Shown: positions 3,238 through 32,000, numbered from the stretch's first letter. The stretch is DNA of 32,000 bases from Candidatus Methanoperedens sp. (GCA_027460535.1 JAPZAR010000027.1:30001-62000); one strand, 5' to 3'. Notes: generated by a model not told the origin, from the sequence alone. Program-made: numbers and translations.

Positions 3238-4050
3238 ATGAAAATAATAGCTATAATGGGGAGCCCCAAGGGAAAGGGTTCTGGCCATAAGATCGTGAAA
3301 ATGATCGAAGACAGGATGATAGCGATGGGCAACGTGGAATTCGAATACCTCTTCCTTAAGGATGCGAACCTCAAGCTATGCATCGGCTGCTATAATTGCA
3401 TGGCAAAGGGTGAGGACAAATGCCCGCTCAAGGATGATCGCGCCGCGATAGAGCAAAAATTGCTGGCGGCGGACGGCTTCATTCTTTCATCGCCCGTGTA
3501 CATGGGCAGCGTCAGCGGGCTCATGAAAAATTTCATCGACCGGTTCGCCTACTTGAGCCATCGGCCTCGATTCCACCGTCAGAAAATGTTGACAGTGGTG
3601 AACACGTCAATCACTGGCAAGAAGGGGGCGCTATCGACCCTTAAGATCGCACTGGGATACGATCGAGGCGCCCGGATCGTCCATGAGCTTGCGATAGCGA
3701 CACCCCCGTGGCCGCAAACAGAACGCGCGGTCGCCGAGAAGGAACGGGCCATCGATGTTGCAGCCAAAAAGTTCTACCTGACCTGTCTGGACACATCTCT
3801 ACCATTGCCGACGTTTAATAGCTATATGGACTTTCTCATGATGCAAAAGTTCAGCCTTGAATGCCGGCAATATCTACCAGCGGACTATATGTTTTATAAT
3901 GGTAAGGTCTACTATTTTGATACGAAGGTAAATCCGATCAAGGCGGCTGCGGCAAAGGCCATCGTTGAAATCACTGTGTATATGATGAAGGACATGGGCC
4001 CGGGTAATGTCTCATGGCCTGTGACTAAGAAGGAAGAAAAATTCCATTAA
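3238..4050 (+). CDS. Flavodoxin-fold NAD(P)H-dependent FMN reductase, iron-sulfur flavoprotein (Isf)-like
   Basis: MKIIAIMGSPKGKGSG N-terminus and SSPVYMGSVSGLMKNFIDR flavodoxin-like motifs. A compact cysteine cluster CIGCYNCMAKGEDKC (CxxCxxCx7C) resembles the Isf 4Fe-4S motif. A GGGAGA RBS lies upstream. Confidence 0.7.
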   Translation: MKIIAIMGSPKGKGSGHKIVKMIEDRMIAMGNVEFEYLFLKDANLKLCIGCYNCMAKGEDKCPLKDDRAAIEQKLLAADGFILSSPVYMGSVSGLMKNFIDRFAYLSHRPRFHRQKMLTVVNTSITGKKGALSTLKIALGYDRGARIVHELAIATPPWPQTERAVAEKERAIDVAAKKFYLTCLDTSLPLPTFNSYMDFLMMQKFSLECRQYLPADYMFYNGKVYYFDTKVNPIKAAAAKAIVEITVYMMKDMGPGNVSWPVTKKEEKFH

Positions 4051-7661: not shown

Positions 7662-9107
7662 TCAGTACCTTGGGCACCTTGCCCTTGCAAGAATTACGGA
7701 TATTCCTTTCTTATCGAGCTTTTTCTCCAATAGATTTTTAATATCCATATACATCTGCGGGTCTATTATCTCAGTATCCTTGACCAGAGACCTGACAAGT
7801 TCGGTGAGATCGGGTACATCCTGGCCCCCGGTCATGGCAGAGATCTGGTTCTGCAGCACTATTACAACCACTTCATGTCTGTTGTGAACCGCATTGATCA
7901 GCCCCGAAATCCCTGAATGCGCAAGCCCGAAATCACCCGCTATCGCTATCCCTTTCCTGTTGAACCCTGAGGCTGTGCCTATCGAAGAACCCAAGGAGAA
8001 TGCAGCATCAAGGAGGGATAGTGGAGGAACGGAAGCCAGTATTGAGCACCCGAGGTCTCCCGCCACGGGCACATTCAACTCTTTTACTGCATTGTAAAGG
8101 GGCAAATACGGGCAATCATCACATAAAGGGCGTGCGCCGCGTTCCTCTATGGTCTGTGGTGCAATATCGCGTGAGATCTTGTTTTCATTGATACCTCTAA
8201 TCGCCTTTTGAATATCCTCAACTTCGACCATGCCGAAAGGCATGTGTCCTGTAAGCTTTCCGAGCACCCTTTTTGAAAGCTGTCTCTCAATGACAGGTTC
8301 TGTCTCTTCCACTACCAGGACGCGTTCATGGTCCCCTATGAATCGATTTATCAGATCCAGAGGAAAGGGATTTGTTACAGTGAGTGCAAGGTGGGAATAA
8401 TCATCTGGAAGGATGCGATCTACAAGTGTTGAAGGAAAACCCGCTGAAATTATTCCATTCCTGCCTCTATCCTCGCATGTATTTAATTTTGAGCTTTCTG
8501 CATACCTGCACATCTCCGGATAAGATTCGGAGTGAAAGCGCTGGTGCTTGCCCAGCATGGTAAAGAGCCATATATTTCTGTCAAGGGACTTTGCCCGGGG
8601 TGTGCCTCTGCTTTTTCTTACGACATCGCTCTCGCTTTTCAGTAACCTGTCCGTGACCCTGATTATCACGGGAGTACTCACTTTTTCTGATAATCCAAAA
8701 GCCTCTTTGATACTCAGGTAAAGTGCCTGTGGAGTTGATGGGTCAAAAACAGGGACTTCCGCTATTAATCCGTAGAACCGCGAATCCTGCTCATTCTGGG
8801 ATTTCTGAACTCCCGCGTCATCCCCTGCAATTATCACCACCCCGGCACCTATGGTATGCGTTGCAGAGGTCACGAGCGGGTCGGCCAGGATATTCATACC
8901 CACATGCTTTGTGATAACTGCGCCGCGCTCTCCGCATACCGATGAGCCCAGCGCGATTTCAAGAGCTACCTTTTCATTGACACACCATTCATGCCTGATC
9001 TTCCCCATTTTTTCCATCAGTTCAGTTATCGGAAAACCGGGAACACCTGTCACAATTTTAACATCGCTATCAAGAAGACCCAGGGCTGCAGCATCAATCC
9101 CCTTCAT
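7662..9107 (-). CDS. Indolepyruvate:ferredoxin oxidoreductase alpha-subunit-like TPP enzyme; short form with no recognisable 2x[4Fe-4S] ferredoxin insert
   Basis: An N-terminal VTGVPGFPITEL...EKVALEIALGSS...GMNILADPL pattern resembles IorA. The C-terminal GDFGLAHSGISGLINAVHN...VVIVLQN resembles a TPP-binding region, and CDDCPY is also present. 481 aa is clearly shorter than my recollection of IorA length. The start overlaps the upstream gene's stop as ATGA. Confidence 0.65.
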   Translation of the reverse strand: MKGIDAAALGLLDSDVKIVTGVPGFPITELMEKMGKIRHEWCVNEKVALEIALGSSVCGERGAVITKHVGMNILADPLVTSATHTIGAGVVIIAGDDAGVQKSQNEQDSRFYGLIAEVPVFDPSTPQALYLSIKEAFGLSEKVSTPVIIRVTDRLLKSESDVVRKSRGTPRAKSLDRNIWLFTMLGKHQRFHSESYPEMCRYAESSKLNTCEDRGRNGIISAGFPSTLVDRILPDDYSHLALTVTNPFPLDLINRFIGDHERVLVVEETEPVIERQLSKRVLGKLTGHMPFGMVEVEDIQKAIRGINENKISRDIAPQTIEERGARPLCDDCPYLPLYNAVKELNVPVAGDLGCSILASVPPLSLLDAAFSLGSSIGTASGFNRKGIAIAGDFGLAHSGISGLINAVHNRHEVVVIVLQNQISAMTGGQDVPDLTELVRSLVKDTEIIDPQMYMDIKNLLEKKLDKKGISVILARARCPRY

Positions 9108-10060
9108 AAAGCCACCGATTCATCGTTCCGCGAGAACCAGGGAAGAGCTGCAAGAGCACCGATGATGCCTTTCCCCCCGATGCAGATCTCAACACCGCTC
9201 TCCCTGGCGGTCTTTATTGTGAGTTCCTTTGTAATCATGCCGCTCCTGCAAAGTCTGCTGTATTCCGCAAGTGAAGACGCATCGAAGTCCGCCAGCGCTA
9301 CCATGCCCGTTTCGCTGGATACGCTATATTCTTCAAGACCTTCCTTTATTTTCTCGATCAAGCTTTTTTTTGCACCATCCATGCATGCGAATTCAAGCAC
9401 CGTCGCGACGCAGTTCTGGGTCTTATCAGGCACGGGGTAAAGCTGGACAAGGGTATGCGAGATATATTTACTCTCAATTGAATCCACAGCCGCTGCGATA
9501 TTATGAGCAAGCGTCCATGTCGCTCCCACCTCTTTTGAGTCCGTGTTATCAATTCCCACAAGCACTCTCTCTCTTCTTGGGACTATGATCGTGCCGCTTG
9601 CGCGCTTTCCTCCCCCTGATTCCGAAACCCGGCAGCGCAGGACGCCGTTCGCGAATGCTCTGCACGTCGTTGCTCCAACCCCGCCGCCTCCTAGGCCGCT
9701 GTACGTTATCTCGATTTCATTATCATTTATGACAACGGACTCAATGCCAGCCGCTGCCACGGAAGAGCGCAGGTCAAGATCTGAATTCCCGCATCTTACA
9801 AGATAGCGCATCATGTCTCCTACCGCCCTACTCTTAATAACAAGAGGGCTTTTGGAGTAATGGTAGAGCGCCCAGGCCGAGCCGCCGTAGCAGCTTGAAT
9901 GTTCCATTATTTCCACATATTCATGTCTGCGGTCCGCCACTGCGTAAATACCCTTATAAACGATGTTGTATGGGTCAGATAGATACATATTTACAGTGGT
10001 TTTAAGTATTCTATCCCATATATGAGTATCTGGGTTAATTAAAATGTTCAACAAATTCAT
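9104..10060 (-). CDS. Conserved archaeal protein whose C-terminal half resembles the N-terminal kinase-like domain of TiaS (DUF1743-type); possibly the 'methanogenesis marker protein 11' family
   Basis: Residues about 165-318 read VLVGIDNTDSKEVGATWTLAH...LVQLYPVPDKTQN...GKGIIGALAALPW. From memory this parallels the hhGIDDTDS...GMCTTY...GRGhIGAhAA signature at the TiaS N-terminus. There is no OB-fold or Zn-ribbon tail. The 160-aa N-terminal domain is unrecognised. The family assignment was not verified. Confidence 0.45.
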   Translation of the reverse strand: MNLLNILINPDTHIWDRILKTTVNMYLSDPYNIVYKGIYAVADRRHEYVEIMEHSSCYGGSAWALYHYSKSPLVIKSRAVGDMMRYLVRCGNSDLDLRSSVAAAGIESVVINDNEIEITYSGLGGGGVGATTCRAFANGVLRCRVSESGGGKRASGTIIVPRRERVLVGIDNTDSKEVGATWTLAHNIAAAVDSIESKYISHTLVQLYPVPDKTQNCVATVLEFACMDGAKKSLIEKIKEGLEEYSVSSETGMVALADFDASSLAEYSRLCRSGMITKELTIKTARESGVEICIGGKGIIGALAALPWFSRNDESVAL

Positions 10061-11888
10061 TATAATGATTGCCCTGATTTTAGTGACTGCAGGGGGCGCT
10101 CAAGCCCTTGATGGCGGAGTTAGCGTTCCTCTCGTGGCGGATAGCAGCACAGCAGAAGGTGATACCGGCATTCTACTGGGGGCACAGGTCATAGTCACAA
10201 ACGGGACAGGTCATGTTTTTGTGGATACAAGCCCATATACCCAGGTCGACCTGCAGGGCTCAGCAAGGATTGCAGCCATGGTGGCTTCTGATGTGCTGGG
10301 AATTGACCAGAGAGCTTATGATTTTTATTATATCATCGATATAAGTTCACCCATTATTGGGGGACCATCGGCCGGGGGGGCATTGACCGTGGCTACGATA
10401 GCAGCTTTAAAAAACTGGACATTAAAACCTGGTGTTGTCATGACAGGTATGATAGACCCTGATGAGTCCATCGGGCCTGTGGGAGGGATTCCTTTCAAAC
10501 TTGAAGCTGCGGCAGCCAAAAACACCACACTGTTCCTTGTTCCACAGGGGCAAAGCACCGTAACTGTAACAAAAATCGTTCGCCGAGCAAAAGGGCCGAT
10601 CATAGTTTCGCAGACCCAGGAGGAAACAGTGGACGTAGTGGACCTTGGAAAGAAACTGAACGTAACAGTGAAAGAGGTGGGAACAATACAGGATGCCGTA
10701 TTTGTTTTTACTGGCCATGAAATAATCAAACCCGAGTTCAAAGGGAATGTTCTGACCTCGAATTATATTGATCTGCTTGAACCGCTGGCTACCAGGCTGA
10801 AAAAAGAATCATCCGATTGGTATGGAGAACTGGCTGGCGCATTGCCGAAAAATCAGTTCCTTGACCAGGCAAAAGACATCCTTGGCAGGGCAGATACGAT
10901 GTATAAAGACCAGAAATACTACGCAGCTACCTCTTTATATTTTAATTCAATGATCAATATGCGTTTTGTGCAGTGGGATGACGGTTATGGCAAAGCCGTT
11001 GATAAAGAACAATATCTTACCGATCTGATAAATAAGGTCGAAACGCAGATACAACTTTCAGAAAAAGATCTTGACGCCTTCAAATCGTATGGCGTAAGCG
11101 ATGTTGAAGCTGTGGGTGCAGCGGAATCCAGGATAACCACAGCGAGGGCCAGACTCGATGAGGCAAAAAAACTCAATAATAGCGAGGATAAGATCATGTC
11201 GCTTGCTTTCGCAAATGAAAGGGCAAGAACTGCACAGTGGTGGCTCACGCTTGCATCGCCGGGTGATACAACAATACCTGAAAATATTTTAAAAGCCCGC
11301 GCTGGATGGTACTTGAGCCAGGCACAGTCAATTAACACTTACATCCAGGCGCTGCTGGCAGATTCTGGAGCGCATGCCGGGATCACGGGTGTTGCAGACG
11401 AGGATATAAACCAGGCGCAGACAGAGTTACAGAAGGGATATTATTCAGGTGCTATCTTTGATTCACTTCAGGCAACCGTGAAGGCAAGCACGACCATAGG
11501 GTTATTCGGCGATGTGGATACTTCGTCAAAGACCAATAAGAGCGCGGATGCAGCAAAATCGCAAATCAACGAAGCCCGGTTGGGCGGGATCGAACCTACG
11601 TTAGCGGTAAGCGCGTATGAATACGCCGGTACACTGACCACTCCATTCGAAGAGATCTCCCAATATTCATACGCAAGAATGGTGGCCAAGACATCACTTG
11701 TACTTAACTCCTATGCCGTACCTGCCGCAGGAAAACCAGTAAAGCCCACAGTTACTCCTTTTGTATATGAGGCAATACCGTCAGCAACACCTGCTGCAAC
11801 GAACCAAACCGCAAAAAAAGTGCCGGCTCTGGAAGCTATCGCAGCAATCGCCGTCATATTGGTTGTAAGGCGTTTGAACAGAAGCTAA
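10044..11888 (+). CDS. Secreted S16 (Lon C-terminal domain-like, COG1750-type) serine protease with a long helical region and a C-terminal membrane anchor
   Basis: Signal peptide MFNKFIIMIALILVTAGGAQA. Catalytic Ser in IIGGPSAGGALTVA and a candidate dyad Lys in GGIPFKLEAAAAKN. A helical region of about 330 aa is followed by a Pro/Thr linker and the terminal ALEAIAAIAVILVVRRLNRS (TM helix plus basic tail). Several N-x-S/T sequons are present. Confidence 0.75.
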   Translation: MFNKFIIMIALILVTAGGAQALDGGVSVPLVADSSTAEGDTGILLGAQVIVTNGTGHVFVDTSPYTQVDLQGSARIAAMVASDVLGIDQRAYDFYYIIDISSPIIGGPSAGGALTVATIAALKNWTLKPGVVMTGMIDPDESIGPVGGIPFKLEAAAAKNTTLFLVPQGQSTVTVTKIVRRAKGPIIVSQTQEETVDVVDLGKKLNVTVKEVGTIQDAVFVFTGHEIIKPEFKGNVLTSNYIDLLEPLATRLKKESSDWYGELAGALPKNQFLDQAKDILGRADTMYKDQKYYAATSLYFNSMINMRFVQWDDGYGKAVDKEQYLTDLINKVETQIQLSEKDLDAFKSYGVSDVEAVGAAESRITTARARLDEAKKLNNSEDKIMSLAFANERARTAQWWLTLASPGDTTIPENILKARAGWYLSQAQSINTYIQALLADSGAHAGITGVADEDINQAQTELQKGYYSGAIFDSLQATVKASTTIGLFGDVDTSSKTNKSADAAKSQINEARLGGIEPTLAVSAYEYAGTLTTPFEEISQYSYARMVAKTSLVLNSYAVPAAGKPVKPTVTPFVYEAIPSATPAATNQTAKKVPALEAIAAIAVILVVRRLNRS

Positions 11889-15527: not shown

Positions 15528-18500
15528 CTACCTCGTCGTAATTGCAGCCACGTTGGTGGACGTACTGGAACCGAAGATATTAGTTGCCAGGATACGGTAT
15601 GTGTAGGTTGTCCTGCGTTTCACACCGTCCTGACCTGTGGTGGGGTTCGTGTATGTCATGGGGCCAGTCCCCGGGTGGGCCGGCAAGGTTGCTACGTTAA
15701 TCCACGTAGTACCACCATTGGTTCTTCTCTGGACGATGAAGCTCGTCTCGGCATTGAAGTTGGGCGGATTGGAGACATTGGGGGAATTATCCGTCCAGTT
15801 GACAACGACGGGGGCGTTATTTGCAGGATTAGGCTGAGCTGCCGTCAGGCTCGATGGAGCCGCAGCCGGGGGGCCCACCGTGACACTATTGGAGGGTGCC
15901 GAGTTGACGGTATTGTTGGGATAGGCGCCCATATTGAGGATACCGACCACGTTGGAAGCCAGCACCTGGTAGTAGTAGCTGGTGTTGGCTGCAACCGTGC
16001 TGTCGTTAAATGCCAGGATCCCTCCGGTTGCCCTGTTCGGAACGCTCCCTGCAACCATGAAAGTCGTCAGTCCTGTCGTGAAGCCAGGATCCGTTGCCCT
16101 CTGGATAGTGAAGTTTATCTCGTCGACAGAGTTGTCTGTCCAGGTCAAATCCACTCTCAGCGGACCACTGAGCCCTGTGGCAATCAGGTTGGAAGGCGCA
16201 GCCGGTGGAACAGACACCACTACTGGTCGCATCATGTCGTTTTCTTCATGCCCAAGCAGGTGGCAGTGGTAGACATACTCCCAGCCGAAATTGACCAACT
16301 GATTGGTTATGACAGGAGTTACCGGGTTGCCGTTCGGGTCTACATTAGTAAATCCCGTCGTCGAACCTAGTGGACGCGTCACATCCATCGGTCGAATGCT
16401 GTTGGGAATCTTGAAGGGGAGGTTCGTGAGCTTAAGTGGCCTCAACGCCACGATGATGTCTTCCAGCGGGTTCATCCGCACAGTTTCCTTCCAGCCCAGC
16501 TCGTTGGGGTCTGGGGGCCTGATGGCACCGTCCCACCCGACCCGGTTTATCACCTGTACGTTGAACAGGTGGACATGGATGGCATGGGTATCAACGCCGT
16601 TGTGCGTGATCTTCCATATCTGGGTTCCATCGTTTAGAGACCCTATGGGAGTGCCAATGTCCGTTATGTTTATAAGTTCCACGGGTGGATCGATGTATGC
16701 CTGGATGATGGATGTCTGCCCAACATTGTTAGTATGCCTTATTTCGTTACCAAGGATGGCATTCATCCGACCATAGTCAGTTGTGAAGTCCTCGATGATG
16801 GCCTTTGGCTCCATTTCCATCCTGATAGCGCCTGTTGGGCCGATTGGGTCGAAGGTGAAATTGGTGTCCTGGATTTTCACATACGCACTTGCATTGCCAG
16901 GGAAACCTGGAGCAGGCGGGTTGTAGACGCTATTGTAAGGAGCCTGAGGCACGAGAATGGTGTCTTGGGACGCATTAAACACAGCAGGTAACGCTGTTTG
17001 CAAGGCCGTCAAAATGGTTGCGTTGACATCGTCGACGGGCGCGGACGAATCAGGTCCTGCACCTACATGGATTTGCATGATGGTGCGGGTGTTGGGACCG
17101 TAGCCTGCCAGGGTCGATGGTGCACCGCCAGAACTGGTCTGGTCTGAGTCATTCGTATAGTAGTCAAGACGGGGATCAGCAGCCGGAACAGGCGCGGGCG
17201 AGTCGCTATAGAGGATCAGGGTCTTTCCTGCGAACCTGGAGAAGTCAACAATGACATCCGCCCTCTCAGCCGGTCCGAGGAAGAGTGCCTTCTCTTTGAC
17301 ATTCCCTACGGTTATGTCTCTGCGGTTGTAGACGTAGTTGATCGGCTGGTTTTTTACCACCATTGGAGCAGGCATGAATCCGCCCTCGGTGCCGATTTGG
17401 ATCATTGCTGGGCCCCTGGTGTTCGGATCCGGGACGCCACCCTCACGGTCATCGAAGGTAAAGCCACCTGGTATAATGGTATACCACCAGGTAGGGAAGG
17501 GAGTGATCAAGTTCTGGTTCGAGTTGAAAGGAACCATCTTGACTTCGGTATTCTTCCGACCATCTACGGTGGTCACATTCGGGTCGGCAACATACAGCTG
17601 CAGGTTCCAGAACCGGTCGTCAGCTGCGTTAAGTATGCGGAAGCGAACAGGTCCTGCTGGCACGTTGAGGACCGGGTAGGCTTTGCCGTTGACAAGCGGG
17701 GTGTCCATGAACGCTTCAGGCACGCCGGACGGCGAAATCAACCGCGCATCTGGCGTCCCGGGGATCTCAGGCCCCTCGCAATACTGCGTGGCGCTGGAAA
17801 CGCAACTGGCATTGAAGTTGGGGTTCGGGATCGGCCCGAATTGTAAGCCTGTAAACGGCGGCCAGAACCACGGGCCGTAATCCCATCTGCCCATTGGGTT
17901 AGCTCCTGTTAGGTCCCCCGGGTTCTGGTTGGGCATGTAGACGTGGGGATACCAGAGCTGGCCATAGCCTCCCCACTTCGTCGAATTCCATGTAGGATCC
18001 TGAGCCATCAGTTGCGAGGCAAAGGTGCCCATCTGGTTCGTGAATGGTGTGGTGTTGTCGGGCACGAATGTCTTGTCCTGGATGACAAGGGGAATTCCGA
18101 CGCCCGGGAGTACTGCTGCATTCAAAGGATTTGCTCCCGCTATGTTGGTACCATTGATCAAATCTTGCTCGAACTGGTCTGTCAACAGGTAGCCTGATGC
18201 CTCACCGGCATAGACATTTAGACGGGTGATCCCGTAGGCATGGTCGTGATAGAACATCAGCCTGGCGCTCTGCTGGTTGGTATAGTAAAAGGTCAGCGAG
18301 CCAGCGCCGGGATCGGGCATGTCAGGGACGTTGGACACACTCACACCTTCAGGGTAATCGGTAATCTCTCCAGCAGGAGTAGTCCACTGATGGGGGGTCC
18401 CGTCACTGATCCATGGAGTGGTTCCACCGTGAAGATGCAGGGTGGCTCGGTTCTCAGAGTAACAGGTTGTAGGCTTTGGCGTCGCCGAACAATCCGTACT

Positions 18501-19760
18501 CATAGTAGCATTGGGACCATCCCCCGCCCCCATATAAGTTGTGTCCACCGGAAGGAAGAGGTCGCCTCCGGCACCTGTGGGAAGCTTGTTGGTGAACTTG
18601 ACGCGAACTGGCTTGTCACGCGTGGCGATGATCACGGGCCCAAGATAACTGATAGGTGCGACGTCCACCCCATTCATTACCTGCACATATCCCCTCAGTT
18701 TTGTCGGGGGAAGGTCTGAATGCATTTCCTGGGTGTACTCTCTTAGCTCAATTTCATAGCAATCAGCCGGCTGGCTGGAATATGTGCAGGGAGTCGGAGT
18801 GGCAATTGTTAGACTCGGTAATGGATTGATGAATTTCCTTATACCCCCGGAAATGACAGTGACCGCTATGGAGTAGGTTCGATCGGTGCTGAACATCGGG
18901 TAATTGACATCCCCAAGGTTGATTATAGAACCATTTATAGGGGCCGCAGCAGCCGGATAAAGTAAGGTGTCATTTCCCACTCCGCCTGGCGTAGCTGGAA
19001 TGTCGACGGCAATCCCTTGCCCGTAATGGGCAATCAGGTCGCCTGCTTGAACGGTGGTTGGCGTTACTGTAAAAGTCTGTACTTGTCCAATCGTTACAGA
19101 TGGTACTGTCAACGGTCCGCTATCAAAAATTACTGTATATTGGTTCGGAACACCTGTGGGCTGCAACACGTAGGCATTAAATGTATTTGGCCCTGATCCC
19201 GGCTGATTATATGTCTGGAATGATGAGAGTGTCCCATTTGACAGCGGGGCATGGGTATTGACAACGAATACGTTCGCCGCATTGTCTGTGGGAATCGCCC
19301 GCCCGATCAACGGATTCCCGATTGTGGTTACTGCCGGAAGCGGGCTGTTGGCATAGTTAGGCCAAATGCCGAAATAGTCAGGTGTAGTACCCGGCCCGGG
19401 TTGTGCGATGGCTGCGATTCCAACCGCTGCAGGTGCAATCGTTGCGGGTCCAACCGCTGCTTTCCCCTTCTTTCCAAGAGATTTTTTCAACTTTTCTGCT
19501 GCAGCCTTCCTCTTGGCAAGCATATCTATCATCATTTCTCGTCTTTTCAGCGGATCAATTTTATTCAGAGTATCCTTTGCAGCATTTGCACCCAGAGTCT
19601 GGCTGTCCACTGTGGTGACATTGCCAGTGTCTGATGTGTGGCTGCTCGGAACGGCAGCACTGCTGTTCAACATAAATAATGTCAATCCAGCAGTAAGCAA
19701 CATTAATACAATGCTTGCATATATTGTTCTTTTTAATTTATGTTCATTATTATTTACCAT
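15528..19760 (-). CDS. Giant secreted three-domain-type multicopper oxidase (CotA/bilirubin-oxidase-like, heavily expanded) with an N-terminal signal anchor and two C-terminal fibronectin type III-like domains
   Basis: 1410 aa. All four MCO copper motifs were located in frame: HLH (18429-18437, ATLHLHGG), HDH (18240-18248, FYHDHAYG), HAIHVH (16569-16586) and HCHLLGHEENDM (16233-16268, i.e. HCH-x3-H-x4-M). An IRKFINPLP motif marks the MCO core start. The last 226 aa (15531-16208) form two FN3-like repeats (LTWTDNS..FTIQR..YYYQVLASN and VNWTDNS..FIVQRR..YTYRILATN). The N-terminal hydrophobic helix has no twin-arginine. About 20 N-x-S/T sequons. An AAGGAG RBS lies upstream. Confidence 0.85.
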   Translation of the reverse strand: MVNNNEHKLKRTIYASIVLMLLTAGLTLFMLNSSAAVPSSHTSDTGNVTTVDSQTLGANAAKDTLNKIDPLKRREMMIDMLAKRKAAAEKLKKSLGKKGKAAVGPATIAPAAVGIAAIAQPGPGTTPDYFGIWPNYANSPLPAVTTIGNPLIGRAIPTDNAANVFVVNTHAPLSNGTLSSFQTYNQPGSGPNTFNAYVLQPTGVPNQYTVIFDSGPLTVPSVTIGQVQTFTVTPTTVQAGDLIAHYGQGIAVDIPATPGGVGNDTLLYPAAAAPINGSIINLGDVNYPMFSTDRTYSIAVTVISGGIRKFINPLPSLTIATPTPCTYSSQPADCYEIELREYTQEMHSDLPPTKLRGYVQVMNGVDVAPISYLGPVIIATRDKPVRVKFTNKLPTGAGGDLFLPVDTTYMGAGDGPNATMSTDCSATPKPTTCYSENRATLHLHGGTTPWISDGTPHQWTTPAGEITDYPEGVSVSNVPDMPDPGAGSLTFYYTNQQSARLMFYHDHAYGITRLNVYAGEASGYLLTDQFEQDLINGTNIAGANPLNAAVLPGVGIPLVIQDKTFVPDNTTPFTNQMGTFASQLMAQDPTWNSTKWGGYGQLWYPHVYMPNQNPGDLTGANPMGRWDYGPWFWPPFTGLQFGPIPNPNFNASCVSSATQYCEGPEIPGTPDARLISPSGVPEAFMDTPLVNGKAYPVLNVPAGPVRFRILNAADDRFWNLQLYVADPNVTTVDGRKNTEVKMVPFNSNQNLITPFPTWWYTIIPGGFTFDDREGGVPDPNTRGPAMIQIGTEGGFMPAPMVVKNQPINYVYNRRDITVGNVKEKALFLGPAERADVIVDFSRFAGKTLILYSDSPAPVPAADPRLDYYTNDSDQTSSGGAPSTLAGYGPNTRTIMQIHVGAGPDSSAPVDDVNATILTALQTALPAVFNASQDTILVPQAPYNSVYNPPAPGFPGNASAYVKIQDTNFTFDPIGPTGAIRMEMEPKAIIEDFTTDYGRMNAILGNEIRHTNNVGQTSIIQAYIDPPVELINITDIGTPIGSLNDGTQIWKITHNGVDTHAIHVHLFNVQVINRVGWDGAIRPPDPNELGWKETVRMNPLEDIIVALRPLKLTNLPFKIPNSIRPMDVTRPLGSTTGFTNVDPNGNPVTPVITNQLVNFGWEYVYHCHLLGHEENDMMRPVVVSVPPAAPSNLIATGLSGPLRVDLTWTDNSVDEINFTIQRATDPGFTTGLTTFMVAGSVPNRATGGILAFNDSTVAANTSYYYQVLASNVVGILNMGAYPNNTVNSAPSNSVTVGPPAAAPSSLTAAQPNPANNAPVVVNWTDNSPNVSNPPNFNAETSFIVQRRTNGGTTWINVATLPAHPGTGPMTYTNPTTGQDGVKRRTTYTYRILATNIFGSSTSTNVAAITTR

Positions 19761-28542: not shown

Positions 28543-28577
28543 TCAGAATATTCTGATTTATCAGAAAAGTTTAAATA
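28543..28577 (+). promoter_or_regulatory. Candidate operator (14-bp perfect palindrome plus a third half-site) directly upstream of a TATA-like box for the AbrB-type gene
   Basis: TCAGAATATTCTGA at 28543-28556 is a perfect palindrome. It overlaps CTGATTTATCAG at 28553-28564. This gives three TCAGA/TCTGA half-sites at 9-nt spacing. TTTAAATA lies at 28570-28577, about 30 nt before the ATG at 28607. Confidence 0.35.
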
Positions 28578-28606
28578 TCCTGAAATCCAATCATTGATCG
28601 ACAAAT

Positions 28607-28876
28607 ATGGCCAAGAAAACCGAAAAAGGCTCCTGCTGCGAAGGGGCAGTAATGGGCTGCTGTAAAGTAGAAGCGCTTGTAAGCATAGATGACCGGGGAC
28701 AGATGGTGCTTCCCAAGGAGATAAGGGATAAGGCAAATATCCATGCGGGAGACAAGCTGGCGCTTGTAAGCTGGGAAAAGGATGGAAAAGTTTGTTGTAT
28801 TTCCTTGATCAAATCAGAGGGGCTTGCTGAAATGGTAAAAAATATGCTTGGGCCGCTAATGAAAGAAATTCTATAA
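28607..28876 (+). CDS. AbrB/SpoVT-family DNA-binding protein with three vicinal cysteine pairs
   Basis: 89 aa. The SpoVT-AbrB swapped-hairpin core is VSIDDRGQMVLPKEIRDKANIHAGDKLALVS. CC pairs occur in GSCCEG, GCCKVE and KVCCIS. It lies 15 nt upstream of arsM. Confidence 0.75.
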   Translation: MAKKTEKGSCCEGAVMGCCKVEALVSIDDRGQMVLPKEIRDKANIHAGDKLALVSWEKDGKVCCISLIKSEGLAEMVKNMLGPLMKEIL

Positions 28877-28891
28877 AAAGAGGGAATCAAA

Positions 28892-29725
28892 ATGAAAGAA
28901 GAAGAAATAAAGAAAGTAGTAAGGGAAGGATATGCCAAAATAGCCAGGAAAGAAAGCTCATGCTGCACTCCTGTAACTGCCTGTTGCGGAAGTAAGAACG
29001 AAGAAATTGCAGTGGGTATAAGCAAGAGGATAGGATATGCGGATGAAGAACTCGGTTCAGTTCCTGAAGGTGCAAACTTGGGTCTTGGATGCGGGAATCC
29101 TGTGGCTCTTGCATCGCTGAAAAAAGGTGAAACGGTGCTTGATCTTGGTTCTGGCGCTGGTTTTGACTGCTTCCTCGCTGCCCAAAAGGTGGGAGTCGGG
29201 GGAAAAGTCATTGGTGTGGATATGACCCCCGAGATGATCCAGAAAGCCAGGGAAAATGCGAGGAAAGGCAATTATTCGAATGTAGAATTCAGGCTCGGGG
29301 AAATCGAAAACCTGCCTGCTCAAGATGATTCGGTCGATGTCATCATCTCAAATTGCGTGATCAATCTCGCACCTGACAAGGAAAGGGTTTTCAAAGAAGC
29401 TATCAGGGTCTTGAGGTCTGGAGGAAGATTGATGGTCTCGGATCTTGTTCTGTTAAAAGAGCTGCCTGATGGACTGAAAAATTCCATTGAGGCTTATATC
29501 GGCTGCCTTTCAGGAGCAATAATGAAAGCCGAATACCTCCAGGCGATAAAGAATGCAGGATTCCGGGATGTCAGAGTGATCGACGAAACGCATTATCCTA
29601 TCGAACTAATGGCCAACGATCCTACGGCAAATGCTATTATTGAAAATTTTGACATTTCGCAGGAAGAGATACACGAGGTTGCCGGGTCTGTTGTCAGTAT
29701 TAAGGTCCAGGGGATGAAAAAATAA
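28892..29725 (+). CDS. arsM: Arsenite S-adenosylmethionine methyltransferase
   Basis: REGYAKIA...[12 protein letters not shown]-terminal Cys region, [16 protein letters not shown] motif, [15 protein letters not shown] and YIGCLSGAI. The last two carry the conserved As(III)-binding cysteines of ArsM. Confidence 0.9.
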
Positions 29726-29760
29726 TCCCTCTTTCTGCACATTTCAGCTAATCCCAGCCA

Positions 29761-30432
29761 TCAATCGATTTTCATCCCCGATAAAAAATTAAAAGTATTA
29801 GCAGCGAAGAAACTGCCTTTTTCTTCTCCTGATGACATATCTCTCTTCAGGCGGCTGAGGTCATCCATAGTATCCACGTCATACCATTTTTCGATCTGCG
29901 ATATCAAGAGGCCCATGGCACGCGCTTTCTTCACTGTATGCGAAGTCACCTCTGATGTACTCCAGGGGATTCCCTTGAAAAGTTCAGGTATGCTCCTTTT
30001 CATGCCTGCCAGGAAGTACCCTCCATCCTCGCAAGGCCCAATGACAATATCAACTTCATCCAATCGTCGCAGCGCCTCCCGTATATAATCCGGGGGCAGG
30101 TTTGGAGTATCGCTATCCAGCATCACAACCTTCTCAAAGCCTCGATCAAACAGGATATTCGATATGTTTGCAAGTCTTTCACCAAGATCAGCACCCACCT
30201 GGCTGATGAGAGTAAACGCAGGAGGTATGATGCTTCGAAAAAATTTCTCTTCGGCGACAGGTGTATAGGCCAAAAAGGGTTGCGCTTCCTTTATAGTTTT
30301 AACCTGCTCAATCTTATCCAGCAGGAAATTATGATAGAGGCGAGCTGCTGCTTCCGGTTTCAGCGGAGGGGTCAGCCTGGTCTTGACTTCATTCGGTAAA
30401 GGTGCCTTGGCCATAATTACAATCGCGTCCAT
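29761..30432 (-). CDS. DUF2064-family transferase (TIGR04282-like; a family annotated as arsenosugar-biosynthesis / rSAM-selenodomain-associated glycosyltransferase)
   Basis: AIVIMAKAPLPNEVKTRLTPPL..EAAARLYHNFLLD N-terminus, VVMLDSDTPNLP and C-terminal WYDVDTMDDL match my memory of the DUF2064 signature. Subfamily membership was not verified. Confidence 0.7.
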   Translation of the reverse strand: MDAIVIMAKAPLPNEVKTRLTPPLKPEAAARLYHNFLLDKIEQVKTIKEAQPFLAYTPVAEEKFFRSIIPPAFTLISQVGADLGERLANISNILFDRGFEKVVMLDSDTPNLPPDYIREALRRLDEVDIVIGPCEDGGYFLAGMKRSIPELFKGIPWSTSEVTSHTVKKARAMGLLISQIEKWYDVDTMDDLSRLKRDMSSGEEKGSFFAANTFNFLSGMKID

Positions 30433-30436
30433 AGGT

Positions 30437-31246
30437 TTACGCCTTTTTACCTATCAGCCTGCCCCATCCCACTTTTCCCTCGTCTGCAGCCCTGACCCAT
30501 TCATGAAGACCCTGATCAGCCACCTGGAATATCTTTTCTCCATACTGCTCAATTATCAAATTTTTCAATTCGTTGCGAAGCTTATTCTGGTATATGTGAC
30601 AATGACAGACAAAATCTTTGCTTATGTCCTCTATTTCTACAATCGCAAAACCCTCTTCCATCAATAATTGTTCATATCCCTCCAGCGTTTCCATGTATGG
30701 GAATGCCATGAAATTATTGAGGTTCTCCCACTCCATATCAGTCATATTTCCTGTCTGTATCCAATCCGTAAAAGCGATAGTTCCTCCCGGTTTCAGAACC
30801 CTGTGGGCCTCGCTTATCAGCTTTTTCTTATCTGTAATATAGCACCAGGCATCCTGCCCCCAAACCACATCGAAAGTGCCTGCATGAAAAGGCATGTCCA
30901 GGGCATTCCCCGGCCTGAAAGTGACAAGATGGGAGAGACCTTCACTTTTCGTTCGCTCGGTAGCTTCGTTCACCATCTTTATTGTGGCGTCAAGCCCCTT
31001 CACCCTGCATCCATACTTCCGTGCCAGGTGCCTCGCTGGCCCGCCCAGGGCGCTGCACACGTCCAGTACCATCATGTTCCTGGTTATCCTCGCTTTCTCG
31101 GCCAGAATCTCTGTCTCACGCTCGCCCCCCACGTGAATTTCTTCCCCCATCAGCGCCTCCCATAATACACCCACCGGGCCTTCATATATTCCATTAACGT
31201 CTGCTATGGTGAAATCCAGTCTTTTTCCTTTTACAATTTTATCCAT
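30437..31246 (-). CDS. Class I SAM-dependent methyltransferase, glycine/sarcosine/dimethylglycine- or phosphoethanolamine-N-methyltransferase-like
   Basis: VLDVCSALGGPARHLARKYGCRV SAM motif I, FDVVWGQDAWCYI (compare FDVVWSQD..LH in betaine-pathway N-methyltransferases) and LKPGGTIAFTDW. The N-terminal WEALMGEEIHVGG resembles the WG.e.iH.G motif of that group. Confidence 0.7.
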   Translation of the reverse strand: MDKIVKGKRLDFTIADVNGIYEGPVGVLWEALMGEEIHVGGERETEILAEKARITRNMMVLDVCSALGGPARHLARKYGCRVKGLDATIKMVNEATERTKSEGLSHLVTFRPGNALDMPFHAGTFDVVWGQDAWCYITDKKKLISEAHRVLKPGGTIAFTDWIQTGNMTDMEWENLNNFMAFPYMETLEGYEQLLMEEGFAIVEIEDISKDFVCHCHIYQNKLRNELKNLIIEQYGEKIFQVADQGLHEWVRAADEGKVGWGRLIGKKA

Positions 31247-32000
31247 TTTTCATTTTTCCGGCATTTGAATAATTATCAGGGTTCATCCAGCATTTTGGAT
31301 CAGGTGCGAGCATGTCCCCTGTTTCATAATATGCCTGCGCCCTGCATCCCCAGCACACCGAATTATTTTCACATGTCCCGCAGTATCCCTGCATATTGCC
31401 CGGATTCCGGATGTGAGTTAGAAGGAGATTATCTCTCTGCTGCTCAATTATATTTTCCAGAGAAGTCTCATGGATATTCCCAAACCCTTTCCTTATGACA
31501 GAACATGGTGTAACGTCCCCGTCAATGGTAACACATACAATCCCGCCGCAATAGAACTTATTGGCATCCATGGTGCTCATTGAAAGACTTGAATTAGAGT
31601 AGTTGACCTCATCCCTGAACTCGCATGCTTCCCTGATATTCCGGATGCTGGGGCTCCATTCGGGATGTTCCAGGGCAAGACCTGCCATGCACATCTGGGT
31701 CAGGCAGGTTCTCATACCTTTTTCTTCGAAGAAGAATCTGGTCGTCCTCCTGACATCCTCTCCGGCAACAAGGTTCGTGAATGTGATGCAGTTGATCATA
31801 TTCTCGGGTCTCTTGCCAAGGGATTGGATATTATCAATGCCCTGTAATATCGCTTTTATCTTCTTTTCCGGATCCCCTGTGTGGAGCCTGCCATATATTC
31901 CTTCATCAAGACTATCAAGATGCACTGATATGAACCCCCCTTCTGACATCTCGACTGCTTTTCTTGCCACATCTCTATTCTCCAGTGGAATTCCGCTTGT
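31239..32000 (-). CDS. Radical SAM enzyme with a C-terminal SPASM domain; C-terminal part only, gene continues past the right edge
   Basis: SPASM/twitch cysteines are present: FYCGGIVCVTIDGDVTPCSV and YCGTCENNSVCWGCRAQAYYETGD...DPKC (CxxCx5CxxC). The track starts at the GTG at 31970, but my translation of 31971-32000 (TSGIPLENRD) has no stop. The radical-SAM core and CxxxCxxC motif must therefore lie beyond the window. The stop overlaps the downstream methyltransferase start by 8 nt. Confidence 0.8.
   Translation of the reverse strand, partial: TSGIPLENRDVARKAVEMSEGGFISVHLDSLDEGIYGRLHTGDPEKKIKAILQGIDNIQSLGKRPENMINCITFTNLVAGEDVRRTTRFFFEEKGMRTCLTQMCMAGLALEHPEWSPSIRNIREACEFRDEVNYSNSSLSMSTMDANKFYCGGIVCVTIDGDVTPCSVIRKGFGNIHETSLENIIEQQRDNLLLTHIRNPGNMQGYCGTCENNSVCWGCRAQAYYETGDMLAPDPKCWMNPDNYSNAGKMKNG

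Follow-up and report, generated by a model that had tools for sequence, protein, structure and literature searches.

A SPASM radical-SAM, methyltransferase and TIGR04282/TIGR04283 transferase cassette next to an independent HgcC-arsM unit in Candidatus Methanoperedens

Gene content of the locus

The end of a 32,000-nt stretch of DNA from the methane-oxidising archaeon Candidatus Methanoperedens sp. (GCA_027460535.1, JAPZAR010000027.1:30001-62000; hereafter the window, with positions counted from its first letter) contains a candidate locus at 28,543-32,000 in which two distinct units meet: a regulator gene followed by arsM on the plus strand, and a minus-strand operon belonging to a five-gene cassette composed of a divergent family 2 glycosyltransferase (GT2), a membrane protein, an enzyme of the radical S-adenosylmethionine (SAM) type, a methyltransferase and a TIGR04282 transferase. 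The context beyond the window was read from locus L001, the same Candidatus Methanoperedens contig with its flanks (metagenome-assembled genome, MAG, GCA_027460495.1, JAPZAT010000049.1). The features are as follows:

28551-28566, plus strand: operator-like palindrome TTCTGA-N4-TCAGAA in the promoter of the HgcC-like gene
28607-28876, plus strand: AbrB/SpoVT-type regulator of the HgcC family (NF040962, PF04014)
28892-29725, plus strand: arsM, general type (NF008823)
29761-30432, minus strand: DUF2064/TIGR04282 transferase, last gene of the cassette operon (TIGR04282, PF09837)
30437-31246, minus strand: class I SAM methyltransferase whose family is uncurated (from the open reading frame and family scans)
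31239-32000, minus strand, open to the window end: radical-SAM/SPASM enzyme, C-terminal 253 residues of 361 (PF13186, TIGR04085)
L001:8923-10008: full radical-SAM gene, 361 aa
L001:8208-8861, plus strand: 217-aa polytopic membrane protein, upstream of the radical-SAM gene
L001:7469-8161, minus strand: divergent TIGR04283 GT2, beyond the window

The five open reading frames (ORFs) of the window are real genes with strong family matches and not chance ORFs. When ORFs and junctions were recomputed, the genes, strands and spacings were all as described in an earlier note on this DNA: the stop of the radical-SAM gene overlaps the start of the methyltransferase gene by 8 nt, 4 nt separate the latter from the DUF2064 gene, and the convergent stops of the DUF2064 gene and arsM lie 35 nt apart; the regulator and arsM are spaced by 15 nt. 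That note had also asked what lies past nt 32,000, be it the rest of the radical-SAM gene or a continuation of the operon into a well-known but unrelated pathway. What lies there is the radical-SAM N-terminus, the membrane protein and the GT2 of TIGR04283, a family that the note had named, and the operon does not run on into any known unrelated pathway, because housekeeping genes follow further out, those for IGPD, UbiA, NadA and CbiA to one side and those for a beta-CASP RNase, Trm56 and TFIIE to the other. The window was also scanned for Rfam families and tRNAs, with no matches.

Proteins encoded by the cassette

The DUF2064 protein falls within TIGR04282, as had been proposed (188.8 bits against a cut-off of 134, full-length, 1-189/189), and matches PF09837 with 110 bits. 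It has a GT-A, CofC-like fold, its nearest solved structure being 3cgx, a "putative nucleotide-diphospho-sugar transferase". The GT2 of L001 passes the TIGR04283 model (193.1 bits against 182) and is related to MftF (35 bits).

The N-terminal 108 residues of the radical-SAM enzyme, among them the cluster motif CPQGCLYC, are encoded beyond the window, while the C-terminal part in the window reaches 27 bits to PF13186 (cut-off 21.5) and 33.4 bits to TIGR04085 (cut-off 27). The complete protein matches PF04055 and PF13186, scores 32.9 bits against the same TIGR04085 cut-off and displays the full SPASM cysteine pattern, all of these cysteines being invariant in the family. No curated NCBIfam family reaches its cut-off, the best being AhbD (106 bits against 500), and TIGR04167, the ArsS family, is not among the best 25 of the 38 NCBIfam matches. 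A BLASTP comparison with a bona fide ArsS, the Thiodictyon protein that scores 436 bits to TIGR04167, gave 36 bits over 82 N-terminal residues, and no ArsS was found within 10 kb of the locus in L001. The cassette enzyme can therefore be classed as a full SPASM enzyme and not as an ArsS, in agreement with what had been read earlier from its C-terminus. Cys179 and Cys207, two cysteines that belong to none of the cluster motifs, are also invariant from archaea to Chlorobi.

The methyltransferase had been likened to betaine-type N-methyltransferases. Its similarity to the sarcosine/dimethylglycine type stands, NF041675 being its best NCBIfam match, but membership does not (117.3 bits against a cut-off of 550), and an arsenobetaine-like product, which the note had offered as speculation, was rejected, the likeness to betaine-pathway enzymes being at the level of the fold. 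The nearest structures are 2o57, described as a putative sarcosine/dimethylglycine methyltransferase, 6uv6 (a glucose O-methyltransferase) and other sugar O-methyltransferases, and phosphoethanolamine N-methyltransferases. An alignment of 128 members of the family revealed an invariant QDxWCY motif, with Cys135 conserved in 100% and Cys64 and Cys80 in 91% of them; by manual alignment, the QDxWCY loop takes the position of the catalytic histidine of related N-methyltransferases. The protein is devoid of the ArsM cysteine motifs, aligns with ArsM in the SAM fold alone, at 28% identity, and scores 32 bits to NF038099, the model of arsenosugar-linked ArsM; judging from these comparisons, it is not an ArsM. 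The invariant cysteines of both enzymes would be apt thiol ligands for a soft metalloid, and other chemistry would be equally compatible with them.

The 217-aa membrane protein has no Pfam or NCBIfam match. A comparison of its AlphaFold model (pLDDT 88.5) with PDB folds found nothing better than E=0.6 (TM 0.44). Its family is so small, with 37 representatives among 1.84 billion proteins, that it looks specific to the cassette. A profile search for fused relatives returned a ferritin-like fusion only: in Bathyarchaeia, proteins of ca. 390 aa combine a ferritin-like N-terminus (PF00210) with a C-terminus homologous to the membrane protein. Such fusion genes are located at L007:7782-8951 (minus strand) and L014:7468-8631 (plus strand), and similar ones occur in L011, L023, L025, L036 and L038. 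Overall, three of the five cassette families, those of the radical-SAM enzyme, the methyltransferase and the membrane protein, are uncurated.

Recurrence of the cassette across genomes

The radical-SAM enzyme has 575 homologues at E<=1e-10, the best 120 of which are 58-88% identical and come from Methanoperedens, anaerobic methanotrophic archaea of group 2 (ANME-2), Thermoplasmata/Methanomassiliicoccales and one Zixibacteria MAG. Loci for comparison were taken from a one-genome-per-species scan (80 loci) and from a scan of metagenomes for which the bacterial branch served as seed (80 loci). Clustering by the radical-SAM protein at 90% identity reduced the 165 loci to 105 clusters; 54 of these had enough flanking sequence and constitute the non-redundant set.

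The complete five-gene cassette recurs in Methanoperedens, Bathyarchaeia, Thermoplasmata and Methanomicrobiales, and the radical-SAM/methyltransferase pair is found in bacteria as well. In the non-redundant set, the radical-SAM gene is adjoined by the methyltransferase gene in 53 of 54 loci, by the TIGR04282 gene in 35, by the TIGR04283 gene in 31 and by that of the membrane protein in 25. Any other gene family is common to at most 12 of 81 loci, and the families common to about 10 reflect gene order shared within Methanoculleus. Neighbours of the bacterial loci show no consistent theme (TetR, DinB, GyrI-like, HipA, MFS and SMR efflux, rhodanese, a sulphur transporter, peroxiredoxin). The cassette defines a second, widespread partner set for the TIGR04282/TIGR04283 transferases, and it appears to spread horizontally. 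Its hosts are organisms that matter for the cycles of methane and arsenic in aquifers and sediments, and the cultured carriers, namely several Methanoculleus species, Methanosphaerula subterranea and Prosthecochloris vibrioformis DSM 260, can serve as test organisms.

The HgcC-arsM unit and its promoter

The regulator preceding arsM had been described as an AbrB protein with a cysteine motif. Both features hold, PF04014 being matched, and the assignment can be made more specific: the protein belongs to the HgcAB-associated family HgcC (NF040962, 127.2 bits against a cut-off of 70). Its N-terminal CC-x7-CC motif (residues 9-19, window 28631-28663) has counterparts of the form CC-x(6-8)-CC in 98 of the 120 closest HgcC homologues, and a second CC is located near the C-terminus of the window protein. 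Through its thiols, the motif is a candidate sensor of Hg(II) or As(III) in a regulator with an AbrB fold. The neighbouring ArsM passes the general arsenite-methyltransferase model NF008823 (355.4 bits against 263) and carries the ArsM cysteines in GCG, SNCV and GCLSGA, but it fails the arsenosugar-linked model NF038099 (103.7 bits against 400). It is 50-57% identical to annotated ArsM proteins on plasmids, and 67-78% identical to methyltransferases encoded beside hgcC in other genomes, where they follow hgcC or, in L175, lie just upstream of it.

Four further contexts of HgcC homologues were sampled (L173, L175, L176 and L179). An HgcC homologue precedes hgcAB in L173 and L175, the latter locus uniting arsM, a nitroreductase gene, hgcC-hgcAB, acr3 and arsR. 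In L176 (3501-4684) and L179 (3501-4637), hgcC and an arsM orthologue whose product is 78% identical to that of the window form a bicistronic unit in housekeeping surroundings from which the cassette is absent. The window resembles these two, its hgcC being placed directly before arsM and not before hgcAB.

All five hgcC promoters, whether the cargo is hgcAB or arsM, have the same architecture. In each, the palindrome TTCTGA-N4-TCAGAA and a TATA box are kept, the palindrome lying just upstream of, and abutting, the TATA-like box TTTAAATA. In the window, the order over 28551-28577 is the palindrome, AAAGTTTAAATAT and a further half-site TCAGAAT/TCTGAAT; the corresponding region of L173 is located at about 3830-3870, and L175, L176 and L179 have it likewise upstream of hgcC. 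The palindrome occurs once in the window, where 0.08 occurrences are expected, and it is probably the HgcC operator, overlapping the region of the TATA box and its B recognition element (BRE). When co-regulation of the cassette was looked for, neither this hgcC operator nor the 14-nt palindrome that overlaps it was found near the cassette promoter. In L173 and L174, the promoter palindrome falls inside an annotated 149-aa ORF, so the start of that gene has probably been called too far upstream.

HgcC-arsM is an autonomous and probably self-regulated metalloid-methylation unit that is separate from the cassette, as the pair occurs elsewhere without it and its own operator is confined to the hgcC promoter. 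Only in this Methanoperedens lineage does it lie beside the cassette; the cassette does not need arsM, and the presence of arsM next door is not evidence of a shared function. The HgcC family, named for mercury methylation, apparently serves arsenic methylation too. A family that governs both arsM and hgcAB links the methylation of mercury and of arsenic through one type of regulator. The loci of archaeal mercury methylators and the window have the regulator family and the promoter architecture in common, and differ in the cargo, hgcAB in the former and arsM in the latter.

Another Methanoperedens (L173, L174) has hgcC-hgcAB flanked by a TiaS-like and a Lon-C-like gene, and this pair is found, divergently oriented, elsewhere in the window (9104-11888). 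There, a GT1 and a PAP2 gene occupy the syntenic site, from which hgcAB is absent.

Arsenic genes in the vicinity of the cassette

The flanks of all loci were searched by phmmer with Ars proteins of E. coli, Citrobacter, Haloprofundus, Sulfuricella and Prosthecochloris. Outside the species of the window, ars genes were detected in Chlorobi only, the search having low sensitivity for short ArsR-type regulators, the absence of which is uninformative. The earlier note had named enrichment next to arsM as a test of its proposal, and this enrichment is not seen: among the 54 non-redundant loci, a true ArsM or HgcC is encoded beside the cassette only in the species of the window (L001-L004), and in eight loci from other Methanoperedens species the cassette has unrelated neighbours. 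An ars gene within 3 kb occurs in 4 of the 54 loci, three of which are related Chlorobi.

In Prosthecochloris vibrioformis DSM 260 (L084:6047-11842), arsC, the radical-SAM gene and the methyltransferase gene are oriented in one direction, with no terminator-like site between the first two. On the divergent side, arsR, a gene for an ArsE-like thioredoxin, a permease gene, arsC and acr3 are found, and the shared intergenic region contains promoter-like sites. An SMR/Qac-type efflux gene and an AbrB-family gene are located downstream. The metagenome contigs L090 and L091 repeat this arrangement, and L094 presents a second one in which an ars operon is convergent downstream. These Chlorobi pairs embedded among ars genes come without TIGR04282 or TIGR04283. 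By a rough estimate, made post hoc and on two or three independent events, the four loci with ars genes are more than random placement would give for immediate adjacency, and the arsenic link that they leave for the cassette is weak. Conversely, canonical ArsS loci are themselves often not located beside ars resistance genes, so that missing ars adjacency is weak evidence against an arsenic role. That the cassette acts on a metalloid substrate, arsenic or another soft metalloid, is possible, short of probable.

Comparison with known systems

To our knowledge, the known routes of organoarsenical biosynthesis are those of ArsS, ArsM and arsinothricin (ArsL). ArsS forms an arsenic-carbon bond with the 5'-deoxyadenosyl group. 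TIGR04282 and TIGR04283 are curated as arsenosugar transferases, and a literature search on both families, on DUF2064 and on arsenosugar glycosyltransferases returned no functional study. Annotated loci retrieved through TIGR04282 matches on plasmids were used as reference clusters. On plasmid pJNE5-X3 of Acinetobacter portensis, genes occur for ArsS, a TVP38/FAD oxidoreductase, a DUF547 protein, TIGR04283 and TIGR04282, followed by those for an ArsM-type methyltransferase (39% identical to the window ArsM), a Pit phosphate transporter, a methylthioadenosine (MTA) phosphorylase and a membrane protein of the sterol-desaturase family. Plasmid pTs417 of Thiodictyon syntrophicum encodes a GT2, an OlsE-like membrane protein, ArsS (the protein used above) and TIGR04282.

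Common to the ArsS clusters and the cassette are TIGR04282, a GT2 of the TIGR04283 type, a SAM methyltransferase, a radical-SAM enzyme and a membrane protein rich in His, and the genes follow the similar order GT2, membrane protein, radical SAM and TIGR04282. They differ in the enzymes that fill these places. The radical-SAM enzyme of the cassette belongs to an uncurated SPASM family, not to TIGR04167, and is without the Cys-rich C-terminal domain; the methyltransferase resembles sarcosine and phosphoethanolamine N-methyltransferases and sugar O-methyltransferases, not ArsM; the membrane protein is of a different, novel family; and MTA phosphorylase, Pit, DUF547 and the TVP38/FAD protein are all missing. 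For the canonical clusters, gene content suggests a chemical logic, which we infer as follows: ArsM and ArsS would make 5'-deoxy-5'-dimethylarsinoyl-adenosine, the phosphorylase would yield a ribose-1-phosphate analogue, TIGR04282, with its 3cgx-like fold, would activate this analogue, and the GT2 would transfer the activated product.

An S-methyl-5'-thioadenosine phosphorylase gene is present in the TIGR04282 plasmid loci L184/L182, of Acinetobacter portensis (with ArsS; this locus also carries the phosphate transporter) and Burkholderia glumae (no ArsS listed within 5 kb), which suggests how adenine would be removed before the TIGR04282/TIGR04283 steps. In three unrelated bacterial loci without ArsS (L171, L172 and L067), the neighbour of TIGR04282 is a molybdopterin-dependent oxidoreductase of the sulphite-oxidase/YedY type. 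For members of the two families that are found without ArsS, the curated name "arsenosugar" over-reaches.

Mycofactocin biosynthesis (MftC, MftF, MftM) likewise combines a SPASM radical-SAM enzyme, a GT2 related to that of the cassette and a SAM methyltransferase, but the cassette has no precursor peptide, RRE domain or MftB/D/E, and none of its scores comes near the cut-offs of these families. Among curated relatives, the radical-SAM enzyme scores best with the tetrapyrrole enzymes AhbD and NirJ, at 105-107 bits against cut-offs of 500, and no tetrapyrrole genes lie nearby; a tetrapyrrole role was rejected on scores and context. On the same grounds, and with no precursor peptide gene or RRE domain, a pathway for a ribosomally synthesized and post-translationally modified peptide (RiPP) was rejected.

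Proposed function and alternative readings

In our view the cassette somewhat probably encodes a self-contained pathway in which a sugar is tailored, activated and transferred. The radical-SAM enzyme and the translationally coupled methyltransferase would tailor a small-molecule precursor of the sugar or nucleoside type, the TIGR04282 protein, with its nucleotide-diphospho-sugar-transferase fold, would activate the tailored product, and the GT2 would transfer it to an acceptor that is associated with the membrane and handled by the membrane protein of the cassette. The two-transferase back end is the same as that of the ArsS clusters, which makes the cassette a variant of that pathway type without ArsS. 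Gene content, conservation, family memberships and the independence of arsM are shown by the data, whereas the sequence of chemical steps and the kind of substrate are what we infer here. Several observations weigh against this reading. TIGR04282 and a GT2 also keep other company: in Methylobacterium a GT87 enzyme, an aminotransferase and a SPASM enzyme of another kind, and on a plasmid of Mycobacteroides abscessus a methyltransferase and a molybdenum oxidoreductase; the transferase pair is thus a generic back end that says little about the substrate. The cassette is without the phosphorylase or nucleosidase that an ArsS-like adenosylation route needs. Moreover, TIGR04282, TIGR04283 or the membrane protein is missing from some of the loci, and in bacteria the radical-SAM/methyltransferase pair often stands alone and may therefore have a function independent of the transferases.

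The likelihoods that we attach to this and to the following readings overlap and are not meant to sum to one. The earlier note had proposed a variant organoarsenical pathway that includes arsM. As one integrated route, ArsM would supply methylated As(III), the SPASM enzyme would form the As-C bond, and the methyltransferase and transferases would finish an arsenosugar-like product. Part of this has held up, in that the makeup of the cassette parallels that of the ArsS clusters, with both transferases above the cut-offs of the arsenosugar-curated families, and in that the radical-SAM/methyltransferase pair is embedded among ars genes in two Chlorobi arrangements, after arsC in P. vibrioformis and related contigs and beside the convergent operon of L094. 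The cysteine of the methyltransferase substrate loop, the two non-cluster cysteines of the radical-SAM enzyme and the frequent isolation of ArsS loci from ars genes would also be in keeping with it. The part given to arsM, however, has not: arsM is a neighbour and not a component, being adjacent in the species of the window alone, lying outside the arsenosugar clade and travelling with HgcC on its own, and the cassette promoter is without the hgcC operator. Together with the scarcity of ars genes within 3 kb, the restriction of the likeness to ArsS to an N-terminal core and the absence of ArsM cysteine motifs from the methyltransferase, this makes the integrated pathway unlikely.

A pathway free of arsenic would put a methylated, radical-SAM-modified sugar or polar head group on a polyprenyl-phosphate or membrane lipid, as a decoration of the envelope or of lipids. 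A resemblance to AglJ or a dolichyl-phosphate-hexose transferase is seen in the GT2 beside the radical-SAM gene of several bacterial variants, and some variants add a GT87 enzyme. GT87 enzymes, which are of the GT-C type, use polyprenyl-phosphate sugars. The sugar O-methyltransferases and phosphoethanolamine N-methyltransferases among the nearest structures of the methyltransferase, the dedicated membrane protein with its fusion to a ferritin-like di-iron domain in Bathyarchaeia, and the lack of ars neighbours in more than 90% of the loci are all consistent with such a role. It leaves the ars embedding in Chlorobi unexplained, however, and the distribution over taxa fits no known lipid or glycan, the patchy spread across phyla at 55-77% identity being that of an accessory, horizontally moved trait and not of a core lipid pathway; we hold this alternative to be possible, short of probable. 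Maturation of a mycofactocin-type peptide or cofactor by MftC-like, MftF-like and MftM-like enzymes would account for the partial matches of the SPASM enzyme to PqqE and MftC and for the relatedness of TIGR04283 to MftF, yet only about 38 residues precede CxxxCxxC, which leaves no room for a peptide-recognition domain, and no conserved small ORF, peptidase gene or MftB/D/E-like gene was found in 81 loci. With every score far below its cut-off, this explanation is highly improbable.

A bolder reading is an ArsS-independent route to carbon-metalloid glycoconjugates in anaerobes, which we consider doubtful. Here, the SPASM enzyme with its two extra invariant cysteines would form an As-C (or Sb-C or Se-C) bond, the non-ArsM methyltransferase with its invariant active-site cysteine would methylate the metalloid, and TIGR04282 and TIGR04283 would attach the product to a membrane acceptor, the carriers being Methanoperedens, Bathyarchaeia, Thermoplasmata, Methanomicrobiales and some anaerobic bacteria. 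If true, this route would be an anoxic counterpart of the arsenosugar and arsenolipid synthesis of cyanobacteria.

Other feature of the window

The part of the window with the highest G+C content (0.53-0.57) contains a 1410-aa ORF (15528-19760, minus strand). This ORF gave a faint Cu-oxidase_2 match only and may encode a large secreted or surface protein.

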